Part shown: in pieces, positions 2,420 through 34,405 of the stretch
Numbering within the stretch: the first letter of the stretch is position 1
Layout: each line of letters starts with the position of its first letter
Sequence record: NC_070984.1
Strand: one strand, 5' to 3'
Length of the DNA stretch: 64,000 bases
Origin: Escherichia phage ES17
Made by a program: the position numbers and the translations under genes
Notes under the pieces: model-generated
What the model was told of the DNA's origin: nothing
Databases searched by the model: none
What the model saw: the letters and a program-made list of their open reading frames with translations, nothing else

Positions 2420-3961
2420 ATGTCATTAGATAAACAAATTTATGAAGCTCTAACTGGTAACAATCTTAGTGTAGAGGAAAAGAAAGCACTATTGAATATG
2501 TTGAAAGAGCGTGACCAATGGAGGAAGTATAATAAGATTTTGTCTTTCAAGGCGTATGACTTCCAAAAGAAATTTTATGCAGCAGGATTGAAGCATCGCT
2601 TTAGATTCTTGTGTGCAGCGAACCGTGTTGGTAAATCTTATAGCGAGGCATACGAGTTTGCTTGTCATGTCACAGGTCGCTACCCAACTTGGTGGACAGG
2701 GTATAAATTTAAAAGACCTATCTTAGCATGGGCAGTTGGTATTACAGGGGATTCCACAAGGAAAGTATTGCAAAAGGAATTGTTTGGTACACCTATCGGA
2801 AAGGATACAAATTTATTGGGGACAGGTGTCATTCCTCGTGATGCTATCGTCATTGACACGATAGAACGAGATGGTAACAAACTTCAAATCGTACAAATCA
2901 AACATCAAAATGAAAGAGGGGAGTTTGACGGTTTAAGTACATTAGAATTCCGCTCAACCCAACAGGGTGAACACACATTGATGGGTGCAACAGTTGACTA
3001 CATTTGGTTAGACGAAGAAGATCCATACGAGTCTATGGCTATATTCGCACAGTGCGTCACACGTACACTCACAACTAAAGGTCTAGTTACAATTACAGCT
3101 ACACCAGAGAACGGTTTAACTGAACTGGTAGATAAATTTATGAAAGGTGAAGGGGATGAGAACACAGGTTCTCTATATTTCCAGAATGCTTCTTGGTGGG
3201 ATGCTCATGCAGACCTAGGTGGACATATCACTGACCAAGATATAAAAGATATGACTGAAGGTATTCCAGCGTGGCAGTTAGAGATGCGTTCGAAAGGTAT
3301 GCCATTGTTAGGAAGTGGTTTGATATATGATGTATCGGATGACACAATTAAATGTGAACCATTCGAAATTCCGGATACGTGGAAACGTGTCTGTGCAATT
3401 GATATTGGTATTGATCACCCAACTGCTGCTGTTTGGACAGCTTACGATGCAAACACTGATACTATCTATGTTTACGACTCGTATAAAGAAGGTGGCTTTA
3501 CTCCAGTGTATCATGCTCCAGCTATTAATGGTCGTGGTCAGTGGATTCCTGTCATCCTACCGCATGATGCGGACAATATTGAGAAAGGTAGTGGTTCATC
3601 TGTTGCTCAATTCTATAAAAATGCAGGAGTTAACGTACAGAGTGAGACCTTCTACAACAAAATTGGAATGGATGGTAAAAAGAACTTCTTTGTAGAACCG
3701 GGAATCACAGATATCCGAGAAAGAATGATGAGTGGACGCTTTAAAATCTTTAACACAGCCGCTAACGCTAAGCTATTCGAAGAGAAAGCTAGATATCACC
3801 GTAAGGTTGGTAAGATTATTAAAGAACATGATGACTTAATGGATGCAATGCGCTATTCAGCGTGCTCTGTTACACATCGTGGTCGCTCTAAGCATGACGT
3901 TAGCTACGGAAGTGCTTCTCTGTATGAGGCAAACGTAAGCAGATGGAATCAGAGTTACTAA
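2420..3961 (+). CDS. terL: Terminase large subunit
   Basis: 513 aa; Walker A-like AANRVGKS; C-terminal RNaseH-like nuclease signature CAIDIGIDHPTAAVW; SD GGAGGAAG; followed by portal-sized ORF. Confidence 0.85.
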   Translation: MSLDKQIYEALTGNNLSVEEKKALLNMLKERDQWRKYNKILSFKAYDFQKKFYAAGLKHRFRFLCAANRVGKSYSEAYEFACHVTGRYPTWWTGYKFKRPILAWAVGITGDSTRKVLQKELFGTPIGKDTNLLGTGVIPRDAIVIDTIERDGNKLQIVQIKHQNERGEFDGLSTLEFRSTQQGEHTLMGATVDYIWLDEEDPYESMAIFAQCVTRTLTTKGLVTITATPENGLTELVDKFMKGEGDENTGSLYFQNASWWDAHADLGGHITDQDIKDMTEGIPAWQLEMRSKGMPLLGSGLIYDVSDDTIKCEPFEIPDTWKRVCAIDIGIDHPTAAVWTAYDANTDTIYVYDSYKEGGFTPVYHAPAINGRGQWIPVILPHDADNIEKGSGSSVAQFYKNAGVNVQSETFYNKIGMDGKKNFFVEPGITDIRERMMSGRFKIFNTAANAKLFEEKARYHRKVGKIIKEHDDLMDAMRYSACSVTHRGRSKHDVSYGSASLYEANVSRWNQSY

Positions 3962-4022: not shown

Positions 4023-6266
4023 ATGGCTAAGCAAAAATATAGTGAAGAGGTGTTGGACGAGTTACGTGTTGACCTTCAACGTCGTTTTAATTACGCTCAA
4101 GGTTACGTGGACATGGCTGTTAAGGGCTATGCTCGTGAAGCTTGGGAATATTTCTATGGTAACTTACCTGCACCAGTAACTGCTGGCAGCTCTAGTTGGG
4201 TAGATCGTACTGTTTGGGAATCTGTTAACGGTACATTGCAAGATATTATTAACGTATTCTGTTCTGGTGATGAAGCAGTTACTTTCGTAGCTGACAACCA
4301 ACAGGATTCTGATGCTGCTGATGTAGCAACTAAACTAGTTAACCAAATTCTTCTGCGTGATAATCCGGGATACAATATTATCTCTTCTGCTGCACAAGAA
4401 TGTCTAGTTACTCGTAACTCTTTTATCAAGTATTATTGGGATGAACAAACTTCTACTCAAACTGAAGAAGCTGAAGGTGTACCACCGGAAGCATTGGCTG
4501 CATATGTTCAGGGATTAGAAGCTGGTGGACTCAAGAATCTGGAAATCTTCACTGAAGAAAATGAAGATGGTACAGTGGATGTTAAAGTTACTTACGAACA
4601 AACTGTTAAACGTGTGAAAGTTGAATATGTCCCTTCAGAGCAAATCTTTGTTGACGAACATGCTACCTCTTTTGCAGATGCACAATACTTCTGTCATCGT
4701 GTTCGTCGTTCTAAAGAAGATCTGGTTGCTATGGGCTTCCCTAAAGACGAGATTGAAGCATTCAACGACTGGACAGACACGATGGATACTACTCAATCTA
4801 CAGTTGCTTGGTCTCGTACTGACTGGCGTCAGGATATTGATGCTGATATTGGTACAGATACCGAAGATATTGCTTCTATGGTTTGGGTTTACGAGCACTA
4901 CATTCGTACTGGTGTTCTAGATAAGAATAAAGAGTCTAAACTCTATCAGGTTATTCAAGCTGGTGAGCATATCCTTCACACTGAAGAAGTAACTCACATT
5001 CCGTTTGTAACCTTCTGTCCGTATCCGATTCCAGGCTCCTTCTATGGTCAATCGGTCTATGACATTACGAAAGATATTCAAGATTTACGTACCGCGTTAG
5101 TTCGTGGTTATATTGATAACGTCAACAATGCTAACTATGGTCGATACAAAGCTCTTGTTGGTGCATACGACCGTCGCTCTCTGCTTGATAACCGTCCCGG
5201 TGGAGTGGTTGAAATGGAACGTCAGGACGCTATTGACCTGTTCCCATACCATAACCTACCTCAAGGTATTGACGGCCTCCTAGGCATGTCTGAGGAGCTT
5301 AAAGAGACACGTACAGGTGTAACCAAACTAGGCATGGGTATCAACCCTGATGTGTTTAAGAATGATAACGCTTATGCAACTGTAGGCTTGATGATGAATG
5401 CTGCACAGAACCGTCTCCGTATGGTGTGTCGTAACATTGCTCACAACGGTATGGTTGAATTGATGCGTGGTATTTACAACCTTATCAGAGAAAATGGTGA
5501 AGTCCCTATCGAGGTACAAACCCCTCGCGGTATGATTCAGGTAAATCCGAAACAATTACCAGCTCGTCACAATCTCCAAGTTGTTGTAGCTATCTCTCCT
5601 AATGAGAAAGCAGAACGTGCACAGAAACTGATTAGCTTGAAACAGCTGATTGCAGCAGATGCACAGTTAGCACCTCTCTTTGGTTTGGAGCAAGACCGTT
5701 ACATGACTGCACAGATCTTTGAGTTGATGGGTATTAAAGATACACATAAATACCTTCTGCCTCTGGAACAGTATCAACCTCCAGAACCTTCTCCGATGGA
5801 AATCCTCCAGCTCGAGATGACTAAAGCACAGGTTGAGAACGTACAGGCTTCTTCTCAGAAGATGATTGCTGATGCATTCGACCAACGTGAACGTACTACA
5901 TTCGAACAGCAGAAAGCTGCGGATGAGTTAAGTCTGCGTCAGGAAGAGTTGCAGTTCAAGCAAGAAAATGCAGCAGATGCTATGACTCTGGAAAACCGTA
6001 AAGAAGATAACAATGCTACTCTGGAACAAGCTAAGCACAAGTTAGCTCTTATGCAACAGCAGGTCCGTCAGTATGAATCTGTACTGAAAGAATTGCAGAT
6101 GGTTATGTCTCATCAGGTAGACCAAGAGAAGATTGTTCAGCAAGCTCGTGTTCAGGACAAAACTTTGGAACTCCAAAAGAAAGAAGCTAATGTAACTAAG
6201 AAAGAGCAACAAGCTTCTCTCAAAGATTCACGGATTCCAGGCAAACGTCTTGGAAGTAAAAAGTAA
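4023..6266 (+). CDS. Portal protein (putative)
   Basis: 747 aa directly downstream of terL, upstream of scaffold and capsid; C-terminal Q/E/K-rich coiled coil; SD GAGGGAGAG; positional assignment. Confidence 0.6.
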   Translation: MAKQKYSEEVLDELRVDLQRRFNYAQGYVDMAVKGYAREAWEYFYGNLPAPVTAGSSSWVDRTVWESVNGTLQDIINVFCSGDEAVTFVADNQQDSDAADVATKLVNQILLRDNPGYNIISSAAQECLVTRNSFIKYYWDEQTSTQTEEAEGVPPEALAAYVQGLEAGGLKNLEIFTEENEDGTVDVKVTYEQTVKRVKVEYVPSEQIFVDEHATSFADAQYFCHRVRRSKEDLVAMGFPKDEIEAFNDWTDTMDTTQSTVAWSRTDWRQDIDADIGTDTEDIASMVWVYEHYIRTGVLDKNKESKLYQVIQAGEHILHTEEVTHIPFVTFCPYPIPGSFYGQSVYDITKDIQDLRTALVRGYIDNVNNANYGRYKALVGAYDRRSLLDNRPGGVVEMERQDAIDLFPYHNLPQGIDGLLGMSEELKETRTGVTKLGMGINPDVFKNDNAYATVGLMMNAAQNRLRMVCRNIAHNGMVELMRGIYNLIRENGEVPIEVQTPRGMIQVNPKQLPARHNLQVVVAISPNEKAERAQKLISLKQLIAADAQLAPLFGLEQDRYMTAQIFELMGIKDTHKYLLPLEQYQPPEPSPMEILQLEMTKAQVENVQASSQKMIADAFDQRERTTFEQQKAADELSLRQEELQFKQENAADAMTLENRKEDNNATLEQAKHKLALMQQQVRQYESVLKELQMVMSHQVDQEKIVQQARVQDKTLELQKKEANVTKKEQQASLKDSRIPGKRLGSKK

Positions 6267-7588: not shown

Positions 7589-7629
7589 TCGACAAATTAA
7601 ATTATTAATAGTATAGGAGCTAACATAAC

Positions 7630-8688
7630 ATGGCTAATCCAACTTTATTTGTATCGTATGACCAGAATGGTAAAAAACTTTCTTTTGCTAACTGGATTTC
7701 TGTTCTGTCCCCTCAGGATACCCCGTTCGTATCTATGACCGGTAAAGAGTCTATTAACCAGACTATCTTTAGCTGGCAGACCGATGCACTGGCAAGCGTT
7801 GACGGTAATAACGCACACGTCGAAGGCTCTCGTGCTGAAGACGGCGAAATGAAACCGACTGTTATCAAATCTAACGTTACTCAGATTCTGCGTAAGGTTG
7901 TTCGTGTTTCTGATACTGCTAACACCACCGCTAACTACGGTCGTGGTCGTGAACTGATGTATCAGTTGGAGAAGAAAGGTAAAGAGATCAAGCGTGACCT
8001 CGAGAAAATCCTTCTGTCCGGTCAGGCTCGTACCGATGTTCTGGCTGACCAGTATCTGACTAACTCCGCAGCTGATCCTGCTGTTGCTGGTCTGAATGAC
8101 ACCCATGCAGCTCGTAAGACTGGTGCATTCCAGTTCCTGTGTGCTCACGGCGGTCTTGCTGGTGGCGTTGTTGACAAGACCAAGAATGGTCCTGCTGACC
8201 CGGATACTGGTGCAGTAACTGTTAAAGTTGCACAGAATGCTTCTAACCCGACCACTAACATTGGTTTCGACGAAGCTGATATCTTTGATATGACTCTGCA
8301 ACTGTATACCGCTGGTTCTGAAGCAGATATCATCATGATTAACCCGGCTCATGCTAAGATCTTTGCTGGTCTGCAAGAAAATACTCAGGGTTCACGTAAG
8401 CGTATCTTTGAGAACACCAAGCAGTTCATCTACGAAGTTAACAGCATCACTGACCCGCTGGGCCAGAGCTACAAAATCATCGTTAACCGTTGGATGCCTA
8501 CCGATGCAGTTTACTTCTTCCGTAGCGCTGACTGGACCCAGATGGTTCTACGTGCTCCGAAACGTACTGAACTGGCTAAAGACGGTTCTTACGAGAAGTG
8601 GATGATTGAAATGGAAGTTGGTCTGCGTCACCGCAACCCGTATGCTTCCGGCGTTCTGTTCACTGCTGCGGGAAAGGTGGCGGCGTAA
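7630..8688 (+). CDS. Major capsid protein (putative)
   Basis: 352 aa after scaffold; strong SD TAGGAGCT; codon choice typical of highly expressed genes; Ig-like ORF immediately downstream. Confidence 0.7.
   Translation: MANPTLFVSYDQNGKKLSFANWISVLSPQDTPFVSMTGKESINQTIFSWQTDALASVDGNNAHVEGSRAEDGEMKPTVIKSNVTQILRKVVRVSDTANTTANYGRGRELMYQLEKKGKEIKRDLEKILLSGQARTDVLADQYLTNSAADPAVAGLNDTHAARKTGAFQFLCAHGGLAGGVVDKTKNGPADPDTGAVTVKVAQNASNPTTNIGFDEADIFDMTLQLYTAGSEADIIMINPAHAKIFAGLQENTQGSRKRIFENTKQFIYEVNSITDPLGQSYKIIVNRWMPTDAVYFFRSADWTQMVLRAPKRTELAKDGSYEKWMIEMEVGLRHRNPYASGVLFTAAGKVAA
8670..8676 (+). other. Candidate -1 programmed ribosomal frameshift heptamer G_GGA_AAG near 3' end of capsid gene
   Basis: X_XXY_YYZ slippery pattern in capsid frame (codons GGA AAG = Gly Lys); -1 frame is open from 8610 through 9212; possible downstream hairpin ACAGT-GTG-ACTGT at 8695..8707. 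Confidence 0.45.
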
Positions 8689-8699
8689 CAGTAGACAGT

Positions 8700-9212
8700 G
8701 TGACTGTTAGCCCTGCGTCTTTAGCAAGCCTAGAGACAGGGGCTACTCGGCAGTTCACTGCAAGCGCGGAGAAAAGTGATGGTTCTACCGAAACAACTGG
8801 CTTTACTTGGTCAGTGACAGGAGGTGGTTCTATCACTCAGTCGGGTTTGTATACTGCCCCGAGTGCGTCTCAATCCACTGATGTATCCATTACTGCAACT
8901 TTAGAAGGTGTTTCTGGTACAGCAACCATTTCTGAAATTGTTGCTCCTACTCCTACTATTGTGAGTCGTGGGCCAATTACAGGTAAAGTAGGTGGTACTA
9001 CCACTAACTTCAACACCATGTTTACTGTAACTAATTCTATTGCTGATGATTACACACTTGTTGTAACTCCCGCAGAAGCTGGTACAATAAGCGCTAATAA
9101 TTCGTTAAAATTAGATGCTGCTGCAAGTGGCGAAGTTACTGTTCAAGCAAGTTTGACAGCTGACCCGTCCATCAATGCAACATGCACTTTTACTGGTGTA
9201 ACACCTGCTTAA
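8700..9212 (+). CDS. Ig-like (Big_2-type) domain ORF, probably expressed as C-terminal extension of the capsid protein
   Basis: GTG-initiated ORF without SD; -1 frame relative to capsid gene, open from 8610; Big_2-like pattern TGATRQFTASAEKSDGSTETTGFTWSVTGGGSITQSGLYTAPSASQSTDVSITATLEGVSGTATI. Confidence 0.5.
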   Translation: MTVSPASLASLETGATRQFTASAEKSDGSTETTGFTWSVTGGGSITQSGLYTAPSASQSTDVSITATLEGVSGTATISEIVAPTPTIVSRGPITGKVGGTTTNFNTMFTVTNSIADDYTLVVTPAEAGTISANNSLKLDAAASGEVTVQASLTADPSINATCTFTGVTPA

Positions 9213-9220
9213 AAACTAGA

Positions 9221-9250
9221 CCCTGCCTTCGGGCGGGGTTTTTTCGTTTT
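9221..9250 (+). terminator. Rho-independent terminator
   Basis: CCCTGCC-TTCG-GGCGGGG hairpin followed by TTTTTTCGTTTT, just after Ig-like ORF stop. Confidence 0.7.
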
Positions 9251-9270
9251 AAGACCTATACAAGCTAGTG

Positions 9271-9284
9271 TGTAATGTATATTC
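9271..9284 (+). promoter_or_regulatory. Phage promoter-like motif TGTAATGTATATTC
   Basis: TAATGTATA at 9273..9281, about 40 nt upstream of ATG 9315; same motif recurs at 24475, 34394 (+) and 34202, 45843 (- strand). Confidence 0.5.
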
Positions 9285-9314
9285 TTTGTCTACATACAAC
9301 AAGGAGGACAACCT

Positions 9315-24470: not shown

Positions 24471-24486
24471 TCTATAATGTATATAG
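24471..24486 (+). promoter_or_regulatory. Phage promoter-like motif TCTATAATGTATATAG
   Basis: TAATGTATA at 24475..24483, about 40 nt upstream of ATG 24522 (SD AAAGGAGA). Confidence 0.5.
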
Positions 24487-34195: not shown

Positions 34196-34214
34196 GTATA
34201 ATATACATTACATA
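34196..34214 (-). promoter_or_regulatory. Phage promoter-like motif (reverse strand) upstream of SSB-like gene
   Basis: Reverse complement of 34202..34210 is TAATGTATA; about 60 nt upstream of start codon at 34142. Confidence 0.5.
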
Positions 34215-34389: not shown

Positions 34390-34405
34390 GCTATAATGTA
34401 TATAA
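34390..34405 (+). promoter_or_regulatory. Orphan promoter-like motif CTATAATGTATATAAG on + strand inside a - strand intergenic region
   Basis: TAATGTATA at 34394..34402; no + strand ORF downstream; possible non-coding/antisense transcript. Confidence 0.35.

Follow-up and report, generated by a model that had tools for sequence, protein, structure and literature searches.

The locus at the 3' end of the major capsid gene raises the question of how a long open reading frame encoding Ig-like domains is translated when it overlaps the capsid gene in another frame. The stretch of DNA analysed here (the window, 64 kb in length) comes from a phiEco32-like (Kuravirus) phage of E. coli, and a preliminary description of it proposed that a programmed −1 frameshift fuses the capsid protein to these domains. 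We find that the locus is the Kuravirus (phiEco32-type) capsid gp11–gp12 recoding unit and that its frameshift signal, which would add two Ig-like domains to a minority of capsid copies, is real and already described. Taken as a discovery it is a rediscovery, the same event being on record for phiEco32-like phages (RefSeq entry for phage Paul; PMC4281155, PMC7881722, PMC9965538). What is new here are side points only: no candidate for a canonical stimulator was convincing, a hairpin that lies 23 nt beyond the slip site is conserved, and related genera have other routes to the fusion.

Table 1. Features of the capsid/extension locus, with positions in the window
Feature	Coordinates	Strand	Basis or remark
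Shine-Dalgarno (SD) sequence AGGAG of the major capsid gene	7615..7619	+	Anti-SD duplex −6.5 kcal/mol
Major capsid protein gene, 0 frame, 352 aa, 38.6 kDa	7630..8688	+	Stop TAA 8686–8688
Slippery heptamer GGGAAAG, register G_GGA_AAG (X_XXY_YYZ)	8670..8676	+	Invariance in relatives; named shift site in RefSeq Paul and three papers (PMC4281155, PMC7881722, PMC9965538)
−1 extension, 178 aa (GGGVTVDSV...TGVTPA)	8676..9212	+	Stop TAA 9210–9212
Weak hairpin with bulges, immediately 3' of the heptamer	8677..8716	+	Folding; possible stimulator
Ig-like domain 1, Big_2-like, extension residues about 4–88	8685..8939	+	AlphaFold2 model, Foldseek, sub-threshold Big_2
GTG used by gene callers as start of a separate 170-aa ORF	8700..8702	+	Considered unlikely to be the principal start
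Conserved long hairpin in the Ig-coding RNA, 23 bp	8700..8758	+	RNAalifold consensus; begins 23 nt beyond the heptamer
Ig-like domain 2, extension residues about 90–178	8943..9209	+	PHROG 33551, structure model, tandem-Ig matches
Intrinsic terminator closing the capsid/extension transcription unit	9218..9251	+	Folding; annotation in SU10, Paul and 4E8

The capsid ORF matches Pfam SU10_MCP (1e-76) and aligns with the SU10 major head protein (PDB 7z45) over residues 1–352 with an E value of 7.5e-237. Its AGGAG sequence is the sole ribosome entry site for both capsid isoforms. At the slip site the 0-frame codons read GCG GGA AAG GTG GCG GCG TAA, so that three sense codons lie between the heptamer and the capsid stop and AAG is the fourth codon before it. 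The ORF at 8700..9212 is read in the −1 frame with respect to the capsid gene; this frame is preceded by a stop codon at 8607–8609, is open from 8610 to 9212 and overlaps the last 26 capsid codons. Each of these elements lies where the preliminary description had placed it, and the predicted junction of the slip product, ...FTAAGK-GGGVTVDSVTVSPASLASLETGATRQF, is identical to the one it had given. This product would consist of capsid residues 1–349 followed by 178 further residues (527 aa, 55.8 kDa) and would contain the peptide GGGVTVDSVTVSPASLASLETGATR, which is derivable only from −1 reading upstream of GTG 8700. The hairpin terminator expected after the −1 ORF was also found: a GC-rich 10-bp stem at 9218–9241 has a T run behind it (−22 kcal/mol, z = −4.5, 0/200 shuffles as stable).

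The heptamer GGGAAAG as such is not rare, with six occurrences on the + strand and four on the − strand of the 64 kb. As a test of chance we considered every X_XXY_YYZ heptamer that lies in register within an ORF of 100 aa or more, on either strand of the window (n = 51). The −1 run after the heptamer extends for 178 codons at 8670–8676 as compared with a median of 5, and it ends 174 codons beyond the 0-frame stop, whereas the runner-up reaches only 16. The capsid site is thus the sole in-register heptamer of the 51 with a long −1 frame after it.

We then compared the locus with 24 Kuravirus/Suseptimavirus-type loci, metagenome contigs included, and with that of Proteus phage P59 (Privateervirus). 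Region 7600–9300 of the window is 96–99% identical in nucleotide sequence to phiEco32, SU10, DE5 and others, and the gene order is that of the relatives: scaffold, capsid, Ig extension, terminator and adaptor, with Pfam SU10_adaptor also matched. GGGAAAG is present in register, 1–13 nt before the capsid stop, in all 24 Kuravirus-type loci and in P59, and the −1 frame after it runs for 178–545 codons in every one of the 24 except SU10. The SU10 frame ends after 11 codons because of a 1-nt insertion, which the window does not have; the linker indel of the NJ01/Paul type is 3 nt long and therefore preserves both frames. The 0-frame capsid tail varies freely (VAA, AAA, AGA, VEA, VVA, AVA, ATS, AVAA, VAAA), and in the intact loci the extension has accumulated numerous synonymous substitutions and has gained or lost domains. 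In a comparison of 20 loci the four capsid codons that immediately precede the shift do not vary, but near the heptamer we found no significant excess of synonymous constraint (invariant codons 5/10 versus 38/83 further upstream). In the hairpin region downstream, invariant codons number 7/25 versus 3/54, a hint of constraint that is confounded by protein conservation.

These comparisons bear on two alternatives in which no ribosome shifts frame. The −1 ORF might be an unexpressed relic of an ancestral in-frame capsid–Ig fusion broken by mutation, beside which the heptamer would be a coincidence. Such fusions exist in related genera (SeKF_80, A24), and SU10 has lost the extension and retained viability, but we consider a relic highly improbable given that the ORF has stayed open over 178–545 codons in 23/24 loci despite the synonymous changes and domain turnover, that the heptamer is invariant even in Privateervirus, where the capsid is just 57% identical, and that the long form has been detected in Privateer virions (PMC7881722). 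A sequencing or assembly error that split one continuous capsid–Ig gene is scarcely credible. Single-base errors near G/A runs are common on some platforms, but nothing specific points to one here; the same layout recurs in more than 20 independently sequenced genomes and metagenome contigs, and the 352-aa capsid matches the solved SU10 chain from residue 1 to residue 352.

The alternative that demands the closest attention is translation of the Ig ORF alone from GTG 8700, possibly by re-initiation after the capsid TAA, the product then being a free decoration protein of 16.8 kDa attached to the capsid by non-covalent binding. The GTG is indeed there, 12 nt past a very heavily used capsid stop, a separate 170-aa CDS is annotated in most deposited genomes, gp10 is considered in the SU10 structure paper as perhaps a minor capsid protein in its own right, and a weak PHROG match leads to Hoc-like decoration proteins. 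Nevertheless, the features of the GTG itself argue against its use. Its best anti-SD duplex is −1.7 kcal/mol, compared with −6.2 to −12.7 kcal/mol in 16/17 other late-gene starts, and it is the only start codon in the −1 frame until an ATG at extension codon 114; the preliminary description was correct in seeing an ORF with a GTG start only and no SD. Moreover, of the 23 relatives whose −1 frame is intact, 15 have GTA or ATA in place of this GTG. Where it is missing, the earliest possible start is extension codon 15, 32, 33, 46 or 58, within the first Ig domain, and would cut away the first beta-strands. By contrast, the −1 peptide upstream of the GTG position is kept in relatives as G[GS]G(G)VTV[DE][ST][VI]TVSP[AS]S, and alignment to bacterial homologues puts the beginning of the first Big_2-like strand upstream of the GTG. 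The codon is also paired in the basal helix of the predicted conserved hairpin 8700–8758, and no density for a free Ig protein is seen in SU10 heads. In the homologues, gene callers start at many differing internal codons, giving truncated products of 110–254 aa. With no SD, an unconserved codon and a conserved peptide ahead of it, a start at GTG 8700 was rejected as the main route, and independent translation, the possibility that the preliminary description had set against its own proposal, has evidence against it and is in our view improbable.

The extension that a frameshift would add is confidently modelled as two tandem Ig-like beta-sandwich domains. The AlphaFold2 model is all-beta with two domains and a mean pLDDT of 96.3; its top Foldseek match is a tandem Ig-like segment of Leptospira LigA (8gyr, E 2.5e-11, TM 0.54), and further matches comprise many Ig tandems, including RB49 Hoc and the phi29 prohead (6qvk). 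The extension matches PHROG 13745 ('Ig domain containing protein') at 4e-75, and residues 115–178 match PHROG 33551, of the same annotation, at 1.4e-44. Hoc-like decoration proteins give a weak PHROG match. For Pfam Big_2 (PF02368) the extension scores 16.8 bits (E 0.0067), below the gathering threshold of 22.8 bits, which the Paul orthologue barely clears with 23.4 bits. The Ig-like call of the preliminary description therefore stands on the 4e-75 PHROG match and the structure model, not on Pfam Big_2, and the domain is best named Big_2-like.

Stimulators of −1 frameshifting, in the form of a structure 5–9 nt downstream or of an SD-like sequence upstream, are common but not obligatory. Inspection of the upstream sequence revealed no SD-like motif ahead of the heptamer. 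Folding of the RNA 3' of the heptamer, as the preliminary description had recommended, does predict a hairpin at 8677–8716, the upper 10 bp of which start after a 5-nt spacer, but at −15.5 kcal/mol it is not significant against shuffled sequences (z = −1.3, 22/200 shuffles as stable). It was set aside as the canonical stimulator and is a possible one at most; no convincing stimulatory RNA was found at the canonical 5–9 nt spacing. The stem arms of this hairpin, TAACAGT/ACTGTTA, are invariant across loci, which makes covariation uninformative. For SU10 a stem-loop with the heptamer in its loop has been proposed (CTGCTGC-GGGAAAG-GYGGCGG; PMC4281155). This structure folds at −14.6 kcal/mol (z = −1.35), and since a ribosome decoding the heptamer has already melted it, it was ruled out as a downstream stimulator.

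The second hairpin, at 8700–8758, lies within a stretch (8677–8760) that has a minimum free energy of −32.9 kcal/mol and a z score of −2.2. Across the alignment 93–96% of its cells are paired, and two-sided changes occur in three pairs. However, the covariation score of 0.156 is barely above the 0.150 of a control in which the partners were slid by one column, so the structure is suggestive only. The hairpin could act on frameshift efficiency from an unusually large distance, or it could block internal initiation or re-initiation; in the latter case the Ig domains would be made only as capsid fusions. The SU10_MCP clade seems to have reached capsid–Ig fusion by several routes, namely GGGAAAG slippage, a G_GUA_AAG site and a second in-frame capsid paralogue. 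In Aeromonas LAh-type phages the non-canonical G_GUA_AAG is followed by a GC hairpin 6 nt downstream. That the hairpin at 8700–8758 is an element of the recoding unit, together with the idea that the clade arrived at the fusion by three routes, is a tentative proposal that we hold to be rather doubtful; neither part of it was found in the published accounts of SU10, Privateer and YF01.

This analysis itself shows how the locus is laid out, that the extension lacks a start signal of its own, that the arrangement is conserved and that the extension is modelled with an Ig fold; the existence of the long form and its presence in virions come from the literature on close relatives. In the RefSeq record of phage Paul (NC_070992) a joined CDS is annotated as 'Frameshift at GGGAAAG; Frameshift in PhiEco32 major capsid protein product as well (PMID 18294652)', and the same capsid frameshift has been described for SU10 (PMC4281155), Privateer (PMC7881722) and YF01 together with the whole group (PMC9965538). 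The long form of phiEco32 itself is reported second-hand, in passages of PMC7881722 and PMC4281155 and in the RefSeq entry for Paul. Privateer yields two capsid bands in SDS-PAGE, and its minor form was found by MS in virions (PMC7881722). For SU10, SDS-PAGE gave no long capsid band, according to the YF01 paper (PMC9965538), and the cryo-EM head, built of 715 capsid subunits, has no extra density (SU10 structure paper). Both results are explained by the 1-nt insertion in its −1 frame. A '9+10' fusion has been claimed from SU10 proteomics, with coverage of 78.1% and 50.29% (PMC4281155). By our recomputation these figures correspond to about 275 of 352 aa and about 265 of about 527 aa, respectively. 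This coverage requires no peptide from the Ig part, which agrees with the interruption of the −1 frame in SU10, and we do not accept it as proof of the fusion.

Comparative data and the literature on Kuravirus relatives together support the proposed fusion, and the capsid–Ig arrangement is very probably a programmed −1 ribosomal frameshift of the Kuravirus major capsid gene. Ribosomes would initiate at the capsid ATG 7630, and the majority would stop at TAA 8686 to give the 352-aa capsid protein. A minority would slip by −1 with GGA in the P site and AAG in the A site of the heptamer, the P-site tRNA-Gly re-pairing from GGA to GGG and the A-site tRNA-Lys from AAG to AAA. The slipped ribosomes would go on to read a Gly-rich linker (GGG) and the two tandem Ig-like domains before stopping at TAA 9210, and the 527-aa product would co-assemble into the prolate head via its normal capsid part, so that a small number of Ig-like domains would be displayed on the head. 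By analogy with lambda G/GT the slip efficiency may be a few percent, which in a head of 715 subunits, as in SU10, would give tens of Ig tandems per virion. The domains presumably face outward and may serve in weak adhesion to surface or mucus glycans, as is generally proposed for phage Ig-like domains.

On this reading, frameshifting would keep Ig-bearing subunits at a fixed and low proportion to plain capsid subunits. In annotation, 7630..8676 should be joined to 8676..9212 to give a frameshifted second isoform of the capsid protein, following the RefSeq treatment of Paul, in place of the free-standing GTG-started 'Ig domain containing protein' found in most deposited Kuravirus genomes. Display of Ig domains may matter for surface or mucus adhesion of these therapeutic-candidate phages, and the capsid C terminus is an obvious display site; specialists already know all of this.

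Among known systems the closest are phiEco32 gp11/gp12, Paul, YF01, NJ01, SU7 and EK010, whose orthologous capsids are 94–100% identical in amino acid sequence across the group (98% between the window and Paul). Kuravirus-type members have the heptamer at the identical position and share the Gly/Ser linker, the first Ig-like domain and the gene order of the window. The extension varies in length (178 aa in the window and phiEco32, 271 in TH42, 370 in EK010 and 545 in Paul), and nothing essential differs. Privateer and P59 have the same capsid family, the GGGAAAG heptamer and a minor long form, and their −1 extension carries I-set and Big_2 Ig-like domains; P59 is unlike the window in that its capsid is 57% identical, its heptamer directly abuts the stop, and its Ig types and their order differ.

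The preliminary description had likened the locus to gene 10A/10B of T7. The functional likeness holds, since in T7 and T3 a −1 shift near the 3' end of the capsid gene yields a minor, C-terminally extended and co-assembling species, but the analogy goes no further: the T7 shift site is G_GUU_UUC, its extension is short (about 50 aa as compared with 178 aa), and Pfam reports no T7-type capsid family for the window capsid. Lambda G/GT uses the identical slippery heptamer, G_GGA_AAG, but belongs to a tail assembly chaperone, and its product is neither an Ig-like display domain nor part of the virion. The reported frameshift efficiencies are about 10% for T7/T3 gene 10 and about 3.5% for lambda G/GT (PMC9965538). 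Finally, phi29 gp8, with its C-terminal Big_2 domain, and the capsid–Big_2 paralogues of Salmonella SeKF_80 and Cronobacter A24 likewise carry an Ig-like domain covalently at the C terminus of an HK97-fold capsid. Unlike the window, all three do so by in-frame fusion, which places the domain on every copy of that product, and how much of it is present depends on a second gene and not on recoding.

The stretch 7600-9300 shares 96-99% nucleotide identity with over 70 podophages of E. coli that resemble phiEco32 and belong to the genus Kuravirus and its neighbours (DE5 and FS2B 98.8%, SU10 96.7%, phiEco32 96.4%). The capsid ORF lies downstream of portal and scaffold genes and upstream of an SU10-type adaptor gene, and its plain product is a protein of 352 aa and 38.6 kDa. 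All coordinates in the preliminary description of this region were borne out on recheck: GGGAAAG occupies 8670-8676 in the canonical X_XXY_YYZ register (0-frame codons GCG GGA AAG), the ORF at 8700..9212 is in the -1 frame relative to the capsid gene with its frame open from 8610, and an intrinsic terminator follows. A -1 slip at G_GGA_AAG would join the capsid protein to an Ig-like extension of 178 aa (8676..9212), yielding the anticipated product ...FTAAGK-GGGVTVDSVTVSPASL... within a predicted fusion of 527 aa and 55.8 kDa.

Features of the capsid gene and its 3' region (z, fold energy relative to shuffles)
Feature	Coordinates	Strand	Basis
Major capsid protein	7630..8688	+	Pfam SU10_MCP 1e-76; full-length match to SU10 major head protein 7z45 (solved)
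Capsid stop TAA	8686-8688	+	sequence
Hairpin directly 3' of slip site	8677-8716	+	-15.5 kcal/mol, z = -1.3; arms invariant, so covariation uninformative
Conserved 23-bp hairpin in Ig-coding RNA	8700-8758	+	RNAalifold consensus structure with 11 and with 22 sequences
Terminator	stem 9218-9241 + T run	+	-22 kcal/mol, z = -4.5

The motif GGGAAAG alone is fairly common, occurring ten times in the window when both strands are counted. As a test of chance we collected X_XXY_YYZ heptamers in register in all ORFs of 100 aa or longer, on either strand (n = 51). The median length of the -1 frame that follows them is 5 codons as against 178 at the capsid site, where it stops 174 codons beyond the 0-frame stop; the runner-up reaches 16 codons beyond its own stop.

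Independent translation from GTG 8700 would be the alternative, and in the -1 frame this is the sole start codon ahead of an ATG at extension codon 114 (numbered from the slip). As had been proposed, it lacks a Shine-Dalgarno sequence: the 20 nt upstream pair with the anti-Shine-Dalgarno at just -1.7 kcal/mol, whereas 16 of the 17 other starts of late genes give -6.2 to -12.7 kcal/mol, and the codon is sequestered by the predicted hairpin 8700-8758. We compared 24 Kuravirus/Suseptimavirus-type junctions, taken from phage genomes in GenBank, from IMG/VR and from Logan/ENA assemblies. GGGAAAG is in register in every one, 9-12 nt before the capsid stop, and in 23 the -1 frame runs on for 178-545 codons. 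Among these 23 intact relatives a start codon occupies the GTG 8700 position in eight; the other 15 have GTA or ATA, and their earliest possible start is extension codon 15, 32, 33, 46 or 58, well within the first Ig domain. The -1 frame peptide ahead of the earliest possible start is nevertheless conserved as G[GS]G(G)VTV[DE][ST][VI]TVSP[AS]S; the overlapping 0-frame capsid tail varies freely (VAA, AAA, AGA, VEA, VVA, AVA, ATS, AVAA, VAAA). The sole linker indel in the aligned junctions has a length of 3 nt and thus leaves the two frames in the same relation. Database gene calls for the homologues start at many differing internal codons (products 110-254 aa), as expected if no real start exists. 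Proteus phage P59 (Privateervirus), whose capsid protein is 57% identical, has the same GGGAAAG adjoining its capsid stop, followed in the -1 frame by an I-set plus Big_2 extension.

The programmed -1 frameshift is thus supported by the register of the heptamer, the open frame, the lack of a start signal for the extension and the conservation, each observed at the capsid site, and it is very probably the route to the predicted Ig-bearing capsid form. We infer that its efficiency is a few percent. The annotation of the window should accordingly be corrected to a joined CDS (7630..8676 with 8676..9212).

The Ig-like (Big_2) assignment of the preliminary description stood as Ig-like but not as Big_2 proper, since Pfam Big_2 scores below threshold on the extension (16.8 bits vs 22.8). 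PHROGs returns 'Ig domain containing protein' (4e-75), and AlphaFold2, given 24 homologues, produced a model (mean pLDDT 96.3) that shows two beta domains, residues about 4-88 and 90-178. Its best solved Foldseek match is the Leptospira LigA tandem Ig-like segment (E 2.5e-11), with many further Ig tandems including RB49 Hoc and the phi29 prohead Big_2-bearing capsid. Given these matches and the model, the extension is accurately called two predicted tandem Ig-like, Big_2-like domains, which would presumably be displayed outward.

A search for stimulatory elements around the slip site gave none that was convincing. The RNA directly downstream of the heptamer does fold into a hairpin at 8677-8716, but it is indistinct from shuffles. 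The stem-loop proposed for SU10 (PMC4281155), with the heptamer in its loop, is equally unremarkable (z = -1.35), and the decoding ribosome would have melted such a stem beforehand. The hairpin 8700-8758 begins 23 nt beyond the slip site, and GTG 8700 is paired at its base. For the stretch 8677-8760, which includes this hairpin, the folding energy is -32.9 kcal/mol (z = -2.2). Its cells are 93-96% paired (93% in 22 related sequences), with two-sided changes at three pairs, one of which shows three pair types and is never broken; the covariation score is barely above a control with partners slid by one column. This conserved feature may be a new, if minor, observation.

The capsid-Ig frameshift itself is already known for Kuravirus and is not new. 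In phage Paul (NC_070992) the two parts are annotated as one joined CDS, and the record states 'Frameshift at GGGAAAG; Frameshift in PhiEco32 major capsid protein product as well (PMID: 18294652)'; in Privateer two capsid bands were seen and the minor form was detected by MS in virions (PMC7881722); and a Kuravirus survey (PMC9965538) describes how YF01 'and other group phages' make their capsid protein in two forms through slippage at GGGAAAG, the long forms typically about 500-550 aa, with SU10 named as an exception. Mirzaei et al. (2014, PMC4281155) had described the same site for SU10, 'as in phage phiEco32', and minor capsid density is absent from the SU10 cryo-EM study. By alignment, SU10 (L003 2590-2612, KM044272) has one extra nucleotide 20 nt beyond the heptamer, GACAGTGTGACTG to GACACTGTCTACTG. 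This insertion closes the -1 frame after 11 codons and moves the Ig ORF to the capsid 0 frame, where two stops precede it; the window is without it. Converted to residues, the published SU10 MS coverage amounts to 275 aa of gp9 and 265 aa of '9+10' (50.29%), so that no Ig peptide is needed and capsid peptides alone suffice numerically.

Beyond the terminator, TAATGTATA lies at 9273-9281, ahead of the adaptor gene, with further copies at 24475-24483 and 34394-34402 (+) and 34202-34210 (-), four observed against 0.6 expected (0/100 shuffles reach four). The copy at 9273-9281 would fit a phage promoter element restarting late transcription, presumably like those of phiEco32. ATG 24477 of a 1488-aa ORF lies inside the second copy and is without a Shine-Dalgarno sequence (-0.8 kcal/mol). 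The window opens with G-rich non-coding sequence, in which a direct repeat, CACGGGGAAAG, stands at 66-76 and 93-103 (27 nt apart); it has no relation to the capsid frameshift. In some Kuravirus-type genomes the Ig extension and the adaptor gene are separated by an additional gene (loci L027 2283-3131, L021 4183-4695, L034 1886-2137): a collagen-repeat protein in L027, an 83-aa ORF in L034 and, in one ENA contig, an HNH_3 gene of 170 aa, equal in size to the extra ORF of PAS59 (L021). These differing genes mark the spot as a variable insertion point.

More distant relatives have other arrangements. Capsid homologues 57-66% identical, in loci L009-L012 (about 4412-4440) and Aeromonas phage LAh_9 (L020, about 3912-3940), are without GGGAAAG; G_GTA_AAG stands two codons ahead of their stop, followed by -1 frames of 88-169 codons with Big_2 or I-set Ig-like domains; L009-L011 add a 6-bp GC hairpin 6 nt downstream, and part of the LAh_9 -1 ORF is annotated 'tail protein'. 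This G_GUA_AAG arrangement of Aeromonas LAh-type relatives looks like a non-canonical form of the same frameshift and, with its hairpin, may be a minor new observation. An IMG/VR relative (L014, 55% identical) has a dnaX-type A_AAA_AAG in register at about 4421-4427, two codons before the capsid stop, with a -1 extension of just 42 aa that is Pro/Val/Lys-rich and not Ig-like. Salmonella phage SeKF_80 (L018 3001-4770) and Cronobacter phage A24 (L019 4011-5096) each have a pair of capsid paralogues. In the second of the pair (589 and 361 aa, respectively) SU10_MCP is fused in frame to Big_2, with no frameshift. A minority capsid subunit that bears Ig domains is thereby reached by another genetic route, and such paralogues in Moazamivirus and Crifsvirus may likewise be new, though minor.

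A_AAG is very slippery because E. coli has a single tRNA-Lys. The capsid-gene heptamer of the window, G_GGA_AAG, is the same as the slip site of lambda G/GT.
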